Below are positions 8,079 to 34,215 of a DNA stretch of 35,499 nt, piece after piece. Source of the stretch: a virus (taxonomy: Duplodnaviria > Heunggongvirae > Uroviricota > Caudoviricetes); the IMG/VR virus record IMGVR_UViG_2718217860_000003. One strand, given 5' to 3'. A program made the position numbers and the translations under genes. Position 1 is the first letter of the stretch. Every line of letters begins with the position of its first letter. The notes under the pieces were generated by a model. It saw nothing but the letters and a program-made list of their open reading frames with translations, was not told the origin of the DNA and did no database searches.

Positions 8079-8501
8079 GTGGCAAAAGTTTTTACACAAG
8101 AAGAGCGGGAAAAAATTAAAGGGCAGGTGGTGGAACTCGTGCGCCAGAGCGGTCGTGAGACGTTACGGCAACTGGAAGTCAAGACAGGTGCGACAAGATA
8201 TCTGATGAGCGTTCTCGCAAGAGAGCTGGTTGCCAGCGGCGATGTATACAACTCTGGTTACGGGTTATTCCCGTCTGAACAGGCGCGTAAGGACTGGCAA
8301 AATGCCCGTAAAAAGCTCTCAAGGGCAAAGCTGAAGGAACCATCTGCGGTTGATCCGGACCTTATCTGGTCATTACCTGACGGAGAAATACGTCGCTACG
8401 ACAGGCGTCAGAACATAATCTGTCGCGAGTGCCGGAAGAGTGAAGTTATGCAGCGCATACTAGCATTCTATCAGGGAAATGCTCGATATTTATTGAAGTG
8501 A
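8079..8501 (+). CDS. Hypothetical protein (replication-module associated), GTG start
   Basis: 140-aa ORF with RBS-like TAAGGGGGA upstream of GTG; basic, Cys-containing C-terminus. No family recognised. Confidence 0.55.
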   Translation: MAKVFTQEEREKIKGQVVELVRQSGRETLRQLEVKTGATRYLMSVLARELVASGDVYNSGYGLFPSEQARKDWQNARKKLSRAKLKEPSAVDPDLIWSLPDGEIRRYDRRQNIICRECRKSEVMQRILAFYQGNARYLLK

Positions 8502-8753
8502 TGAGATTAAAGTTTATTAGTTCAGATATTGATTGGCTCTTTTGTGGAGTAGGGTAGAGTTAGTGTGTTTGTCTGCTTGGTGCCAGCAGCGGATATGTTT
8601 AACAACAGAAAGCATTCAGCATGGTTAGTGGATTTGCAAAGTGGATTAGGATTTGAGAAACTTTGATGAAGTTGTAAAGCTTGTTTCTATAAAAATAGAA
8701 ATTTAACTAATAGTTAAACACACCTCCAGCTTCATTGAAAAGGATTATTAGCT

Positions 8754-9653
8754 ATGATTGATCCACTTATTAGAAACTTACAGAGTGATATTGCACTACT
8801 CCAGCTTTATATCGCGCAACGCAAACAGGCAGGCTTTCATGACATGGAAAGAATAATTGAGTCATTGACCATCTTTATGTTTCGCGCGCTGAAAATGGGT
8901 GAACTGGTAAACATGAATCAGATTAAAGTTAATTTTCCCGCCATTGATTTAGCTGATAATAAAAACATGATAGCAGTTCAAGTTACTACGAATGCAAGTC
9001 CAGCAAAAATTAAAAAAACTATCGAATCTTTTGAGGAAGCAAATGAAATAGGAGAGAGTCTGAAAGATAAATACTCTACTTTATATATTTTTGGTTTTTG
9101 TAAAGCCTCAAGATACCTAACTCCAAGTTATTGTAAAATAATCGACCCCAGCTATTTCGTGAATGAACTTTGCGATAAAGCAGATGAAGATATGGTCCAG
9201 GATATGATTGACGCCATTCGACGCCATCATGATTATACATCATTACATCCATGGAGTGATAAAGATTCACTCGAAATTATACTCAATATTATTAATCGCA
9301 ATGCAATAAAACATCGGATGAGTTGCGAAGGCAGTCTGTCTGATATGCTCACTGGTTTAAAAGAAATTAATGAAGTAATTACAAAAGGAACAATTCAACG
9401 TAAGCAACGTTCAAAATCGATATCTGACTTCAAAGATCAAAGCATGGTGAAATTTATGAGAGGTGTAATGGATGATTTGTCTGTTATTCAAGCCATAGTG
9501 AACAAATCTAAAGTTAACCAAGGTGATATGGTTTATATAAGCCATGAAGATATGATTAATATTGATAAATTAAAAGCTAAAATAGCAAGTGATTCATCAG
9601 AGATTGCAAGGCTAAATAATATTGATATAACACTAAATGTTGTTGATTTATAA
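8754..9653 (+). CDS. Hypothetical protein encoded in an AT-rich accessory island (candidate defence/abortive-infection-type protein)
   Basis: 299-aa ORF in a visibly AT-rich block; no confident family match. Convergent with the membrane protein/methyltransferase operon. Confidence 0.7.
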   Translation: MIDPLIRNLQSDIALLQLYIAQRKQAGFHDMERIIESLTIFMFRALKMGELVNMNQIKVNFPAIDLADNKNMIAVQVTTNASPAKIKKTIESFEEANEIGESLKDKYSTLYIFGFCKASRYLTPSYCKIIDPSYFVNELCDKADEDMVQDMIDAIRRHHDYTSLHPWSDKDSLEIILNIINRNAIKHRMSCEGSLSDMLTGLKEINEVITKGTIQRKQRSKSISDFKDQSMVKFMRGVMDDLSVIQAIVNKSKVNQGDMVYISHEDMINIDKLKAKIASDSSEIARLNNIDITLNVVDL

Positions 9654-9967
9654 TTGTCGATTTAGCAAAACAGAGAATGCTTTGAAAGTTTCACCGAGAA
9701 ATATTTATTGTGAACCTCCTTATTGTTTATCGACTTTTACTCTCCGCTCATTGCAGTACTGTCGGAGAAGGCTACTATGTACAAGAAGCAGCTAACATAA
9801 GCGAGCATCACTATTGATATTAGGAAGAGTATATAAAAACTTCATGCTGAACCTTACAAAAGTAGGTAAACCGGCAATGGCCTAAGTGGCAGGGTCATGT
9901 TGATCCGGCACTGCCGAGCTAATAATTAACAAGCAAATCACTCTTTCTAATAATTTGTTGAAATAAA

Positions 9968-10627
9968 CTAAATATGTATATGTTTACCAACAACCACATA
10001 TGAACTACCTGCTTTGCTCCATGATTTTATTATTTCTAAATTATTATCTGAGCATATTTTACTTACAGTATCCACATCTAATAAACCATAGTAGAAAGCA
10101 TTACGAGAGTTTTGGTATATATACCCATGCAAATGTTTAATACCGCTCTCGTACCTCTTGAAATAAGAACTTTTGTATTGATTGACAATCAGTGCTTCAC
10201 CATCACTCTTTAATAATTCTCTAATCGCACTGAGGACTTTGTGAATTGTGGATTCACATGGAATTGCGGAAAGCACGTTTGCGCAAAGTATGAAATCATA
10301 ATGATTTGTTATTTTATCTATATTTTCATAAGAAACAATATTAGCATTCTTATAGTTATTTATCACGTAATCTGGAATCGTGGTTTGTACACCTCTGATA
10401 ATTTGCACTCTTTCTAGTTGTCTTCTGGAATCTAAAAATGTCACAGTTTCAAATTTATTTACTAATTGTTCTGAATATCTAAGTTTTCCACATCCAAAAT
10501 CAAGGGCATTGCCATTTTTATTAGTGCTTTCAATCTGTTTACAGAGATAGTTAGATGGCATAGTGTGCGGTTTCGCTGCATTTTCTGAACGTATGTTTAT
10601 TCCATTTATTTTGTAATTCAAAATCAA
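9968..10627 (-). CDS. Class I SAM-dependent methyltransferase (not a recognisable DNA methyltransferase)
   Basis: 219-aa ORF with SAM-binding motif I (ALDFGCGKLRYSEQL), an acidic post-I residue (VTFLDSRRQ) and a motif II-like segment (DFILCANVLSAIP). No DPPY/NPPY or PCQ motifs. Confidence 0.75.
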   Translation of the reverse strand: MILNYKINGINIRSENAAKPHTMPSNYLCKQIESTNKNGNALDFGCGKLRYSEQLVNKFETVTFLDSRRQLERVQIIRGVQTTIPDYVINNYKNANIVSYENIDKITNHYDFILCANVLSAIPCESTIHKVLSAIRELLKSDGEALIVNQYKSSYFKRYESGIKHLHGYIYQNSRNAFYYGLLDVDTVSKICSDNNLEIIKSWSKAGSSYVVVGKHIHI

Positions 10628-10633
10628 CCTCGT

Positions 10634-11341
10634 TTAAAAAATATTGTTATTGTTAAAGAATTCTTTTATTTTGCTATCAGGTATTTGTCTTACTTGGCTT
10701 TCTGTTCTTGGTTTAACTGATGCTATGAAAATAAGGAAGTCAAATGCGACAAGAGAAATAATCCACAACCAAAGATTAATTAAAGAGCCAGTAACAGAGA
10801 ATATATTTGTTAATTTGGCGATACTTATTATTAAAATAGTAACAAATGCGATTACTGTATGTTCAAAGAAAACCCAAAAGTAATAAACTTTGTTCCAGAA
10901 AAGTTCAACGTAATGTTTGTCTTTTAACTCTTTAACTTCTGGGTAATACAGTTTACTCATTACCTTGTGAGATTCATCAGTAGTTAATTTTCTCGTAACG
11001 CCTGCAATTTTTGCTAATGGTTTAATAATTAAATGACTATCCCACATCTTCCTTATTCCAATAATTTTTGCTACATTATTATGTAGATCTAAAGCTCCAC
11101 TAATTACTGACCAAAAAACTGAAGATGCAATTGGTAATATGCCAAAGGTTAATATCCATTTAATAAATTCCTCGTAGTCTTTAACGGGGGGGATATACTT
11201 GGCATTAATGCCAACCAATGGCATGTAGCCATAAATGACTAATGATAGGTAAAATATAAATGTAGTAATAAAAGTCGCCTTATGGAGCATAGGCAACATT
11301 TCATTATAACTCTTTGGTGGTTCTAACATTTTACTCTCCAA
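10634..11341 (-). CDS. Integral membrane protein (about 4 predicted TM helices), function unknown; forms an operon with the downstream methyltransferase
   Basis: 235-aa ORF with several long hydrophobic stretches; its stop lies 6 bp from the methyltransferase start on the same strand. Confidence 0.7.
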   Translation of the reverse strand: MESKMLEPPKSYNEMLPMLHKATFITTFIFYLSLVIYGYMPLVGINAKYIPPVKDYEEFIKWILTFGILPIASSVFWSVISGALDLHNNVAKIIGIRKMWDSHLIIKPLAKIAGVTRKLTTDESHKVMSKLYYPEVKELKDKHYVELFWNKVYYFWVFFEHTVIAFVTILIISIAKLTNIFSVTGSLINLWLWIISLVAFDFLIFIASVKPRTESQVRQIPDSKIKEFFNNNNIF

Positions 11342-12014
11342 ACATTCAAAAAAAAGCTAATCTTCTATAATAACGAAATTCAGCTGGCACAATTAAAGAT
11401 TAATTGCCACCAATTTCTTGATTTTATAATTTTATCTAAATGTTTTTGATTAATCTAGTCCTAAAAGAAACCTACTGCATAAATATTTATGCTGATGACC
11501 CACTCCCTGTTCGTTAACACATAGCAACGTTAGTAATGCATCCTAAGTGATCAATATTTTTGCTAGCTTCATCTGCTCGCTCAAAGGGAACTATAATGTT
11601 GGCTTGCGTGTGACTTGGCATGTTTAAAGAAGTGCTGGTGGTGACTGGTTGCTGTTTTCCATTTCCACAGAACAAAATCATAGAAACTATACCCAGTAGT
11701 TGTATTGAATCACTGACGAGACAGCCTCATATTTATCAGGACTGGTGTACGTCCAATACAGGAGGTTGTGGTGCTGGTTCTCAAATGTGCGCTGGCTATT
11801 GCTGCTGTAATGGCAATTTATTGTCTTGCTGTTGTTCTTATGGATCACCTTTCTGATTGATTTCATATTGGCGAGGTAACGGTAGTTAAGTAGAATTGCT
11901 GCGGGTGCTTGAGGCTATCTGCCTCGGGCATCAACACCAAAGGCAGATAGAGAAAAGCCCCAGTTAACATTACGCGTCCGGCAAGACGCTTAACATTAAT
12001 CTGAGGCCATATCT

Positions 12015-12227
12015 ATGCTCTACACACGTAGGTTAGCCTCTTACGTGCCGAAAGGCAAGGAGAAGCAGGCTATGAAGCAGCAAAAGGCGATGCTAATCGC
12101 CCTGATCGTCATCTGTTTAACCGTCATAGTGACGGCACTGGTAACGAGGAAAGACCTCTGCGAGGTACGAATCCGAACCGGTCAGACGGAGGTCGCTGTC
12201 TTCACAGCTTACGAACCTGAGGAGTAA
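12015..12227 (+). CDS. Mok-like leader ORF in frame with hokD (N-terminally extended reading frame)
   Basis: The track ORF starts 19 codons upstream of the Hok Met in the same frame. Confidence 0.35.
   Translation: MLYTRRLASYVPKGKEKQAMKQQKAMLIALIVICLTVIVTALVTRKDLCEVRIRTGQTEVAVFTAYEPEE
12072..12227 (+). CDS. hokD: Hok/Gef-family type I toxin (HokD/RelF-like)
   Basis: 51-aa product MKQQKAMLIALIVICLTVIVTALVTRKDLCEVRIRTGQTEVAVFTAYEPEE with AAGGAG RBS; single TM helix and conserved Hok C-terminus. Confidence 0.9.
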   Translation: MKQQKAMLIALIVICLTVIVTALVTRKDLCEVRIRTGQTEVAVFTAYEPEE

Positions 12228-20073: not shown

Positions 20074-20766
20074 TCAAATCTTATCTAACTCATTATAGGC
20101 TTCGATAATAAAAATTCTGATTTTAATAAGGCATGATTCAATGAAAGGAATTACTTCATGGTCATTCCCATGGAATCTTATTTTTTTCTCTTCGGTAATG
20201 ACTATGTTTAAAGGTACACCATTACCACTTCTTTGTAATTTCCCATTTTCGAAAGTAAAGTCTTCTAATTTTTTGCCATTGATGTGGTTGTTTTTAAAGA
20301 GAATTTTTGCTGAGCTTCCTGCTGTGATTAAACCAAAACCATCTACGCTCACACTTAGGTCTTTAACAGAACTCTCTTCTCTTAAGGGGATTGGTTGTCT
20401 GTGCTTTACTTCATTAGTGAGATTACACATCATTTCCAACCAAGATTCGCCAGTGTGATAATCCTGTATAGAAGTAAAAATTTTATATAATGGAGAAGAT
20501 GATGGTGGGTTTATTTTTAGCGTCTTTGAGAAAAATTTATCAATAAACTCTTTTTTTCCGTAAGGGAAATATATTTTGGGGCGCTCATCATTACTGCGTG
20601 GAGAAATATATTTATCATAGGTATCATTAGCGAGATACTCTAAGGAACTTCGTAAGTTTTCCAAAATAGCTTTGACTTTTACAGGCTTGATATGCTGTGT
20701 CTGTCTCATTATGCCAAGACTTTCTTCAACTTCTTGCAATAAGTCCAACGAGCCTTCTCTAGACAT
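20074..20766 (-). CDS. Hypothetical protein in an AT-rich moron between the lysis cassette and terminase
   Basis: 230-aa ORF in a visibly AT-rich segment, opposite strand to the flanking late genes; no family recognised. Confidence 0.65.
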   Translation of the reverse strand: MSREGSLDLLQEVEESLGIMRQTQHIKPVKVKAILENLRSSLEYLANDTYDKYISPRSNDERPKIYFPYGKKEFIDKFFSKTLKINPPSSSPLYKIFTSIQDYHTGESWLEMMCNLTNEVKHRQPIPLREESSVKDLSVSVDGFGLITAGSSAKILFKNNHINGKKLEDFTFENGKLQRSGNGVPLNIVITEEKKIRFHGNDHEVIPFIESCLIKIRIFIIEAYNELDKI

Positions 20767-21638: not shown

Positions 21639-21738
21639 NNNNNNNNNNNNNNNNNNNNNNNNNNNNNNNNNNNNNNNNNNNNNNNNNNNNNNNNNNNNNN
21701 NNNNNNNNNNNNNNNNNNNNNNNNNNNNNNNNNNNNNN
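21639..21738. other. Assembly gap (100 N) between terminase and tail gene M
   Basis: Run of 100 ambiguous bases; terminase-large through tail gene H are absent from the window. Confidence 0.99.
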
Positions 21739-21765
21739 TGGTCGGTTAAGTGGAGCATATCGGTA

Positions 21766-32481: not shown

Positions 32482-33070
32482 ATTCGTAATGATTACCTAA
32501 ATACGTTATTCTTTTGTTCAAAAAGTGATTTTTCTATAGGTAGGGAGTATGTTCTTGGATTAAGAATAAAAAATCGCCATGAAAGAGCTTCATGGCGAGT
32601 ACATAAACGTACAAAATATGATGAAAGTAGAGTGGCGTAAGCCACTATATTAAGATATGACAATAGCGAAGAAAAGTAAATAACATTTTATGGGCGTTTA
32701 ATTGTTAATTATAAAAACTAGAGTGCCCGATATTGTTTATCTTGCTTTAAAATAATGTACTCAAACCAAATTTTTGAGCTAAAAGCTCAAATAATATAAA
32801 TGCAATGATAATGTTTAATAAGACAATTAGCTTGCTTTGTATTTTCATTTCGGAATACTGTTAAGTAACTTTGATGACACTAACAATAGATCGGAATTTT
32901 CTTAGAGTCAATGGTCACTGTTTTTGCTTGCAAAGCAAATCTTTTTGGTGGTTATAAGTTTTCTTAATATAGTCACCTATGCAACTTGTTCCGTGTGGAG
33001 ATTAAAGGTTAAAATTTAATGCGAAGATGGAATTATAATATATTTTTTTATAATTAATTTAACCTTAACA

Positions 33071-33169
33071 TCGTTGCTGGCGGCATGGAAGAAATATCGG
33101 GTCTTGCTGATGTCGTGTTGGCACTTCCTTAGTGCGGTTATCGAATGGCCAGCTGTACCTGTGGGGTAA
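33071..33169 (+). pseudogene. Relic 3' fragment of a second tfa gene
   Basis: DNA homologous to the last 33 codons of tfa ([13 protein letters not shown]...IEWPAVPVG*), with no upstream reading frame. Confidence 0.7.
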
Positions 33170-33301
33170 AAACTTTATATGGGTGCTATTTTTATAATAG
33201 CTGGTAAAAACTGGCCGAACTGAAATTCACTGTTGATAAAAAAGATGTGTTTGAGTGTATGTCATTGTTTTCTTAATGGAATCCACTAGAATGCAGCGAA
33301 T

Positions 33302-33499
33302 TTAAGAAGGTGGGTTTTTATTGGAATATAAACTACAATAATGCTCAACTCGTTCGTAGAATTGTTTTTTCTTATTTTTTGGAATGCTAACCATTATATG
33401 CATTATGGGGGCGATACTTCCTGATAATTTACATGATGCATACATTGAAGCAATAAATTCAATATCATTGTCATCAAAGTTAAAGCTTTCTCCGTCCAT
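33302..33499 (-). CDS. Hypothetical small protein (uncertain)
   Basis: 65-aa ORF with AAGGA about 7 nt upstream of the ATG, in an AT-rich gene-poor segment. Confidence 0.3.
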   Translation of the reverse strand: MDGESFNFDDNDIEFIASMYASCKLSGSIAPIMHIMVSIPKNKKKQFYERVEHYCSLYSNKNPPS

Positions 33500-34215
33500 T
33501 TCAATTCCTTATGTGTTTGGCACAACTGATGCTGTATCCCATGAGAATTTATGCAAGTTGTTATGTTTGATTTGATATTGCAATGATAATTGTAGCTAAT
33601 TGTTTTCAATTGAGTGAAAGTTTATTTCGAGTGATTAAGTCGAAAAAAAAGATTTCTCACGGTTAGTAAGCGTATTAGGTTAGTATTCAGATATGAATGG
33701 TATTAATGACTAAATTTTCAATCATATATGGATTTTTATGCTGATGAAGATGTTTTATTTGGCGATTCGTCAAGCATCTTCACTTAAGTAATCGTATATT
33801 TTAAGAGTGCAAAAGAGAAAGGGACAACGTTGCTCGCACTCTGGATTAAATATAGGGTGTTGTTAAACTGCGTTGATACATAATTGTACCGGATATTGAG
33901 TGGTCTGAAGTCCCAGTCATTAAGTAATCGTTTCGTGATATGCCGCAGAAACGTTGTATGCAATAACGTTCTGCGGTTGGCTGATGCACTTTCGAGAGTG
34001 TATTGAATAATTTCAAGCCGTTATTGTTTTTACGCGTAACACCATGAAAAGATTGCTTATCTGTTGGGGTGTTTTTTGGGGCATATATGGGACAGAAATA
34101 GGCCACAGATAGATAGTAAGATCGAACTCAGGATGTTTTTGAAAAAATGTAACTATCTGAAAAAACCTAGAAAGCGCCAAGGAAACCACAGAATGAGAAA
34201 AAACATCTGTGAATT

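Follow-up and report, generated by a model that had tools for sequence, protein, structure and literature searches.

What is a small two-gene unit, one gene encoding a multi-pass membrane protein and the other a class I S-adenosylmethionine (SAM)-dependent methyltransferase, doing in the middle of a lambdoid prophage? The question is raised by a stretch of 35,499 nucleotides of Caudoviricetes DNA (IMG/VR record IMGVR_UViG_2718217860_000003; this whole stretch is hereafter the window), in which the two genes lie one behind the other on the minus strand. A reading made from the letters alone (the sequence-only reading) had described them as a two-gene operon and had not recognized the combination as a described phage module. 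By homology the pair belongs to the YmfE/YmfD family, whose namesake genes have been catalogued in the e14 prophage of Escherichia coli K-12. The pairing of the two proteins is near-obligate and ancient and spans many phyla, and we tentatively favor a role as a conflict or defense module carried by mobile elements.

A near-obligate gene pair related to ymfE–ymfD

The pair is 68.9% identical at the nucleotide level to K-12 ymfE–ymfD over 98% of its length (sensitive blastn search of E. coli genomes). The membrane protein is homologous to YmfE over its full length (60.1% amino acid identity over 223 residues, tblastn) and the methyltransferase is 68.9% identical to YmfD; a methyltransferase homolog at 85% identity is labeled 'ymfD [Citrobacter freundii]'. 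In K-12, ymfE (b1138) and ymfD (b1137) are found at the e14 attachment end, between icd and the gene for the Lit abortive-infection protease, with intE nearby. The two loci are alike in both protein families, in gene order (membrane protein, then methyltransferase), in strand and in their role as low-GC prophage cargo, and the K-12 copy stands beside a defense gene. They are unlike in their surroundings: the window pair is in a Qin-like prophage, between the replication and nin regions, with a SMEK-domain gene as its neighbor, whereas the K-12 pair is at the end of e14 by icd and has lit as its neighbor.

The open reading frames (ORFs) of 235 and 219 amino acids (aa), 6 bp apart, that the sequence-only reading had reported are exactly reproduced as the longest ORFs at those coordinates (10634..11341 and 9968..10627, each with a TTG start and with 6 nt between the membrane-gene stop, TAA at 10636-10634, and the TTG at 10627). 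The strand, which is minus for both, had been left unstated. The true starts are probably not these TTG codons but an ATG at 11329 for the membrane protein and a TTG at 10621 for the methyltransferase. The former lies 6 nt downstream of GGAG (11339-11336) and gives a ymfE-like gene at 10634..11329 (231 aa); the latter lies 6 nt downstream of GAGG (10631-10628) and gives a ymfD-like gene at 9968..10621 (217 aa). RefSeq uses both of these starts in the identical locus of E. coli ARL09/232, and they agree with the conserved N-termini of homologs (MLEPPKSY... and xNYKI.G..IRSENAAKPH, respectively).

With these starts, the intercistronic spacer is 12 nt (10622..10633) and holds the methyltransferase ribosome-binding site (the GAGG above), which indicates that the pair is co-transcribed and makes translational coupling probable. 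The earlier description of a two-gene operon thus holds for a unit that is co-directional and tightly spaced. Among relatives, domain envelopes suggest that the two genes mostly either overlap by a few nucleotides or are separated by no more than ~25 nt. The expected promoter location is an AT-rich stretch 5' of the pair (11330..11520, minus strand, GC 0.31), although consensus scanning of that strand detected nothing resembling a sigma-70 promoter there; the same scan detected no terminator downstream of the pair. These are genuine genes and not chance ORFs, because 231 and 217 codons are maintained in DNA of 31% GC, homologs number in the hundreds, and the ratio of nonsynonymous to synonymous substitution rates (dN/dS) against relatives is low (membrane gene, 0.09-0.16; methyltransferase gene, 0.10-0.27).

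Conservation of the pairing was scored from both sides. The profile built from all 65 membrane-protein sequences was too divergent for pattern-based locus retrieval, and the methyltransferase profile and a subfamily alignment were used instead. With the methyltransferase profile, 62 genome loci were retrieved (from Proteobacteria, Planctomycetota, Acidobacteriota, Bacillota, Nitrospirota, Verrucomicrobiota, and others), and adjacency was then scored with a hidden Markov model (HMM) of the membrane family. This HMM matches an adjacent ORF on the same strand in 60 of the 62, and both misses are at contig ends. The membrane-protein gene comes first in 44 of these loci and second in 14; in the other two, the proteins share one reading frame. 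Seeding with the membrane protein gave 80 metagenome loci, of which seven run into a contig edge and 71 (of the 73 that can be resolved) have an adjacent methyltransferase gene. The two that lack it comprise one with an insertion sequence (IS) transposase beside the membrane gene and one without a clear neighboring gene. Conservation of the gene neighborhood, which had been proposed as a check on the pair, is therefore seen from either partner. There is also a natural membrane protein–methyltransferase fusion of 459 aa, present on four contigs.

Homologs with 40-50% methyltransferase identity (in Neptuniibacter, Pseudomonas, Colwellia and Microbulbifer) have, directly upstream, an unannotated ORF of 219-233 aa that aligns with the membrane protein from the window. 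Closer relatives of the membrane protein, again followed by the methyltransferase, occur in P2-like prophages, in an island with a relaxase and a reverse transcriptase, and at a locus adjacent to Hachiman. An exhaustive profile search places the membrane family in 573 clusters at 50% identity.

Two sets of loci deserve separate mention. In two Acidobacteriota loci, a third ORF of 169-192 aa with no Pfam match lies between the membrane and methyltransferase genes (L048, 5447-6025; L055, 5529-6038), and the longest frame of the membrane gene reaches ~100-140 codons upstream of the conserved domain. These may represent a three-component variant. Three further loci (L019, L020, L021) have copies under unexpected names, i.e., the E. 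coli pair, 100% identical, on 2.6-3 kb contigs of 'Candidatus Scatousia' and 'Haemophilus' metagenome-assembled genomes, and an 86% version on a 2.4-kb contig of 'Streptomyces sp. NPDC088196'. Such copies are most likely contaminating enterobacterial contigs.

Features of the two proteins

The membrane protein (WP_000892866, 'hypothetical protein' in RefSeq) had been said to contain about four hydrophobic helices, and the same four (~18-41, 58-80, 148-172, and 183-208) are given by a Kyte-Doolittle scan and by an AlphaFold2 model with a predicted local distance difference test score (pLDDT) of 90.9. Between the second and third transmembrane helices (TM2 and TM3) there is a helical domain of ~65 residues that is predicted to be cytoplasmic. 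Because this central domain is rich in lysine and arginine (12 K/R) and the outer loops are short and uncharged, the predicted topology is N-in/C-in. Such a topology would be compatible with the fusion of cytoplasmic TIR and methyltransferase domains at either end. Residues H83, R93, Y129, W152, and E156 are invariant across 65 diverse sequences. H83 and R93, along with D137 and H139 (also invariant), are at the cytoplasmic membrane interface, and E156 is inside TM3. We found no significant match to the protein in Pfam, NCBIfam, PADLOC or PHROGs, and its fold has no relative among solved structures.

The methyltransferase shows the glycine-rich motif I, the acidic residue after strand 2 and the seven-stranded Rossmann-like fold of class I enzymes, and the motifs that were quoted for it earlier are both present and conserved. 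In motif I (LDFGCGKLRY), D41, G43, C44, K46, L47, R48, and Y49 are invariant among homologs, as are D64-S65 after strand 2 and C113, N115, and V116 of the strand 4 motif (DFILCANVL). Outside these motifs, K17 and R71 are invariant, as is R48 within motif I, and K155 is nearly so. In Pfam, the protein scores above the cut-offs of Methyltransf_12 and Methyltransf_23 and only just above that of TehB (24.4 vs 20.4). Its nearest folds are DhpI, NodS, phosphoethanolamine N-methyltransferases, UbiG, and cyclopropane-fatty-acid-synthase-like proteins.

The identities that can be set aside are fairly clear. The sequence-only reading had noted the lack of DPPY/NPPY and PCQ motifs; the enzyme has no (D/N/S)PP(Y/F/W) or PCQ motif, and it matches no DNA-methyltransferase family in Pfam (N6_Mtase, N6_N4_Mtase, MethyltransfD12, DNA_methylase), so that a DNA methyltransferase or an orphan component of a restriction-modification system is rejected. 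An established housekeeping enzyme, which had been named as an outcome that would undo the proposal, was not found either: the protein falls far below every NCBIfam equivalog cut-off. An assignment to TehAB is rejected because the two TehB equivalogs score only 28 and 29.1 bits (cut-offs, 218 and 303) and because the partner has four TM helices with no Pfam match. A quinone methyltransferase of the UbiG/UbiE type is likewise rejected, given that no UbiG or UbiE model in NCBIfam was matched; it should be noted that JGI names some homologs ubiquinone methylase.

A possible role in conflict or defense

The module is accessory and horizontally mobile. Three lines of evidence (its position as cargo in three types of prophage, the defense systems in its neighborhood, and the TIR fusions of its relatives) lead us to favor a membrane-docked methyltransferase complex carried by mobile elements for conflict or defense, at a probability that we would put slightly short of an even chance.

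With respect to cargo position, besides the Qin-like prophage of the window and e14 of K-12, the pair is carried by P2-like prophages of Providencia and Enterobacter, in which it is located at the ogr end. The neighborhoods were surveyed as a raw tally of 181 ORFs from ~48 non-redundant loci. Resolvases, recombinases, integrases, and transposases recur in this tally. Within ~3.5 kb, PADLOC recognizes Lit, HamA/HamB, GajA/GajB, LmuB, PrrC, PDC-S56, and E1-E2 proteins, as well as restriction-modification systems of types I, II, III, and IIG. Hachiman (HamA plus HamB) is directly beside the pair in two unrelated lineages and on opposite sides of it (L012/L035/L010 in Pseudomonas and L027 in Amphritea). 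The neighbors are heterogeneous, and no third gene is conserved among these loci.

A TIR_2 domain is attached to the membrane protein of some distant relatives, at the C-terminal end in four (P0357, P0358, L074, L075) and at the N-terminal end in one (P0206); neither window protein has a TIR match. In all of the TIR loci where the methyltransferase could be checked (L074, L075, and L015/L016, which is the P0206 locus), it is adjacent.

Two loci can be described alongside these. In Eubacterium multiforme (L041), a gene for a UvrD-type (GajB-like) helicase is immediately upstream of the pair, and PADLOC matches to GajA and GajB occur in the same batch of neighbors. A metagenomic island (L007/L008) carries a pair with 59% identity together with a relaxase, a 613-aa reverse transcriptase (RVT_1), Hcp, and DUF4225; it is another mobile, conflict-rich setting.

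How might such a complex work? We infer that YmfE and YmfD bind each other and that their complex sits on the cytoplasmic side of the inner membrane; the natural fusion predicts that the N-terminus of the methyltransferase is close to the C-terminus of YmfE. The cytoplasmic YmfD-like methyltransferase would dock on the four-pass YmfE-like protein, at a face that could be made up of the N- and C-terminal tails, the TM2–TM3 helical domain with its invariant His, Arg, Asp, and Tyr residues, and the buried invariant Glu of TM3. More speculatively, an event at the membrane, either the binding of SAM or the transfer of a methyl group, would control, or itself constitute, the response, with the membrane partner or a membrane-bound substrate as the methyl acceptor. 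The membrane protein might be the sensor or the executor, and in some relatives the fused TIR domain is possibly the executor. The system would then be of an anti-phage or abortive-infection type. A bolder version is possible, but we hold it to be clearly the less probable: a new, phylum-spanning class of immunity in which a methyltransferase that lacks the signature of a nucleic-acid methyltransferase, or a sensor of SAM occupancy built on the same fold, sits on a four-pass protein and brings about abortive infection through the membrane or a TIR domain. Its cue might be perturbation of the inner membrane, or depletion of SAM by phage SAM-degrading enzymes, and the copy in E. coli K-12 would be silent, possibly via H-NS.

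A number of observations weigh against a defensive role. No phage-resistance phenotype is known for the pair, and K-12, the standard sensitive host, carries ymfED. Many of the neighbors are ordinary housekeeping genes. In PADLOC-DB v2.0.0 (which includes Kiwa, MADS, and the PDC candidates), the membrane protein matches no family and the methyltransferase matches only mad2, at 19.4 bits over the generic SAM-binding core. A methyltransferase would be an unusual sensor or effector, and invariant polar residues at the membrane–cytoplasm boundary resemble a site for a substrate or ligand more than a simple pore-forming effector. Two published results point the same way: the ymfD knockout had no growth defect and ymfD was not solely responsible for N6-methyladenosine in mRNA (PMC12096079), and a point mutation in ymfD proved neutral (PMC6828540).

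The distribution is also awkward. The membrane protein was found in none of 50,697 isolated phage genomes and on only three plasmids, and a set of 2.9 million viral contigs contains no member of its majority subfamily. Because of these absences from phages and viral contigs, prophage carriage is a trait of the enterobacterial clade and not of the whole family. The pair is not specifically a phage module: outside Enterobacterales, the pair is in chromosomal islands and is missing from the viral contig collections.

The accessible literature assigns no function to ymfD or ymfE. One study lists ymfE with a potential SOS box (PMC6590174), and in another ymfE was not induced (PMC11002266). Term counts for a preprint of 2026 that deals with the silencing of loci for immunity by H-NS ('H-NS silences antiviral immunity through 3D chromatin compaction'; bioRxiv 10.64898/2026.09.05.749240) are 11 for ymfE, 18 for lit, six for e14, and zero for ymfD, with the phrases 'ymfE and lit' and 'ymfE locus' occurring once each.

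The leading alternative is modification of the membrane or envelope. YmfE would present a phospholipid head group, a polyprenyl-linked intermediate or a quinone, which YmfD would methylate constitutively, and the benefit would come from superinfection exclusion at the DNA injection step, or from membrane adaptation, and not from triggered immunity. Alteration of the envelope is a frequent effect of prophage cargo. The interface residues H83, R93, D137, and H139, together with E156 in TM3, have the appearance of a site for binding or catalysis, the nearest folds of the enzyme are small-molecule methyltransferases, and the positively charged K17, R48, R71, and K155 suggest an anionic substrate. 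However, with the module present in diderm as well as monoderm phyla, the target cannot be specific to lipopolysaccharide, and no conserved genes of lipid or quinone pathways are nearby. A biosynthetic enzyme would also poorly explain the TIR fusions, and scores well under all of the NCBIfam equivalog cut-offs argue against the enzyme being a known one. We consider this explanation unlikely overall, yet the remaining alternatives are less likely still.

One of these is that the functional unit in this prophage clade has three genes, the third being the SMEK-domain gene (8754..9653, plus strand, 299 aa). This gene is recognized by SMEK_N models (Pfam, 1.6e-22; NCBIfam, 6.5e-31) and by the Argonaute-associated PADLOC model Aga_REase-PNTD1-PNTD2 (1e-20). 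It lies in the same low-GC island as the pair, 314 nt from the methyltransferase stop, and it co-diverges with the pair, being 83-100% identical at the amino acid level in IMG/VR loci in which the methyltransferase is 81-100% identical. At least 80% of the 3.4-kb block is present in 151 of 5,426 complete E. coli genomes, and the pair is present at an identity of at least 99% in 146 E. coli genomes. Against a three-gene unit, the SMEK gene is on the opposite strand, in a convergent (tail-to-tail) arrangement with the methyltransferase gene, and it adjoins the pair in no clade but that of the enterobacterial lambdoid prophages. Neither P2-like prophages nor e14 nor the relaxase island has it beside the pair, all of the distant loci lack it there as well, and across phyla the pair is self-sufficient. 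A three-gene unit is thus improbable, and the SMEK gene is probably a separate piece of defense-type cargo.

Equally improbable, in our assessment, is a toxin-antitoxin or addiction system that stabilizes the element, with the membrane protein depolarizing the membrane and the methyltransferase neutralizing it by binding or methylation. Strict pairing, tight coupling, and small size are all as expected for such a system, as is carriage on mobile elements near other toxin-antitoxin loci (in the window, hok/sok is 600 bp away, and in K-12 relBE holds the corresponding place in Qin), and the IS insertions into the block (see below) could be taken in its favor. On the other hand, purifying selection on the two proteins is similar, and both gene orders and single-chain fusions exist, which would be unusual where differential stability is needed (a weak point). 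The Keio deletion of ymfD is viable and without a growth defect, although H-NS silencing could mask toxicity.

Least probable of all is that the enzyme methylates a toxic compound or a cofactor, as a TehA/TehB-like detoxification system or quinone methylase, while the membrane protein exports or binds that compound: the order is that of tehA-tehB (membrane protein, then class I methyltransferase), and the marginal Pfam and NCBIfam TehB matches and JGI names would fit, but the equivalog scores are a small fraction of their cut-offs, the UbiG/UbiE models are unmatched, the four-TM partner is unrelated in Pfam to the 10-TM TehA, and the distribution is patchy and mobile, with TIR fusions.

Returning to the conflict or defense module, we compared it with known systems of similar build. 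Kiwa consists of KwaA, a four-pass membrane protein, and the cytoplasmic KwaB (DUF4868), and is found in defense islands and prophage hotspots. It is alike in having two genes, for a small tetraspanning membrane protein and a cytoplasmic partner, and unlike in that the partner here is a SAM methyltransferase in place of a DUF4868 protein; there is no KwaA or KwaB match in PADLOC. In chemotaxis, CheR is a soluble class I SAM methyltransferase that acts on the cytoplasmic helical domain of chemoreceptors and thereby sets their signaling state. By analogy, this could be a model for the action of YmfD on YmfE, although Pfam shows no homology to CheR or to the signaling domain of methyl-accepting chemotaxis proteins, and there is no demethylase partner.

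The hotspots of P4 and P2 contain cassettes that combine a HAD-like hydrolase, a reverse transcriptase with a nitrilase, or a TIR protein (phage AC1) with TM proteins (Rousset et al. 2022; PMC9122126). These are alike in being small cassettes of prophages or satellites in which a cytoplasmic enzyme or TIR protein is joined to membrane proteins thought to be abortive-infection effectors, and relatives of the window pair occupy the ogr end of P2-like prophages. They are unlike in enzyme class and in the membrane partner, which here is highly conserved with invariant polar residues. Neither the text nor the supplements of that study include ymfD or ymfE; its main text has no methyltransferase, and the methyltransferase-type entries of the supplement are other families.

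What, then, is new? The pair has been listed among the genes of K-12 for decades, the window locus is a further member of the family, and an enzyme plus membrane-protein cassette on mobile elements is itself a known kind of system. New are the near-obligate, multi-phylum module, the natural fusions, the TIR-bearing relatives, and the frequency of defense systems as neighbors; the pair is absent from PADLOC v2, and no description of it was found in the searchable literature. If the module is defensive, it would represent a new enzymatic logic (the sensing of SAM or the transfer of methyl groups at the membrane by an enzyme that lacks the signature of a DNA methyltransferase) and would give a function to two long-standing 'y-genes' of K-12. 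Even if it is not, the membrane family, with its 573 clusters, is an unannotated one that has no Pfam match and has a dedicated methyltransferase partner. The K-12 homologs make the module easy to test, given that Keio mutants, e14-cured strains, and hns backgrounds exist, and the pairing, fusions, and TIR variants suggest both hypotheses and mutants (e.g., D41, G43, and D64 in the enzyme and H83, R93, and E156 in the membrane protein).

The host prophage and its low-GC island

The element that surrounds the pair is a Qin-like lambdoid prophage integrated beside rspB; its annotation was taken from the identical locus in E. coli ARL09/232. The pair is part of a low-GC cargo island (8500..11500; 31-35% GC, compared with ~47-55% in the flanks) inserted between the replication region (DUF977 gene) and hok/sok-rem-nin. 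To the left, the order is int, xis, exo, ydfD, dicB, ydfC/B/A, repressor/cro, YdaT, a replication gene, and the DUF977 gene. The island follows (SMEK gene on the plus strand, then the methyltransferase and membrane-protein genes on the minus strand), and to its right are hok/sok, rem, DUF968, rusA, Q, tRNAs, and lysis genes.

The hok/sok type I toxin-antitoxin locus is complete (11903-12227). It is encoded on the plus strand, opposite to the membrane-protein gene, and is situated ~600 bp upstream of that gene. It includes the sok RNA (11903-12077; 114 bits, the only match in an Rfam scan) and a HokD peptide (MKQQKAML...). The equivalent region of K-12 Qin is occupied by relBE.

IS elements have split the block in some genomes of E. 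coli (H14, NZ_CP127265.1; H21, NZ_CP196743.1). The elements are IS5 and ISApl1, the latter in a case where two 'hypothetical protein' features fall under the match. Such insertions may hint that carriage of the module is costly.

Elsewhere in the window, a second low-GC cargo gene (20074-20766, minus strand, 230 aa, GC ~0.34; hypothetical in RefSeq) is present in the lysis/terminase region, and masked or undetermined bases at ~21640-21740 produce a block of X in the translation of an ORF near the terminase region. Toward the end of the prophage, positions 32500-34200 have a GC content of 0.32-0.38 and no ORF of at least 100 aa. This segment, which lies between a tail-fiber assembly gene and a host gene for a major facilitator superfamily (MFS) transporter, may be decayed cargo or the attachment-site region.

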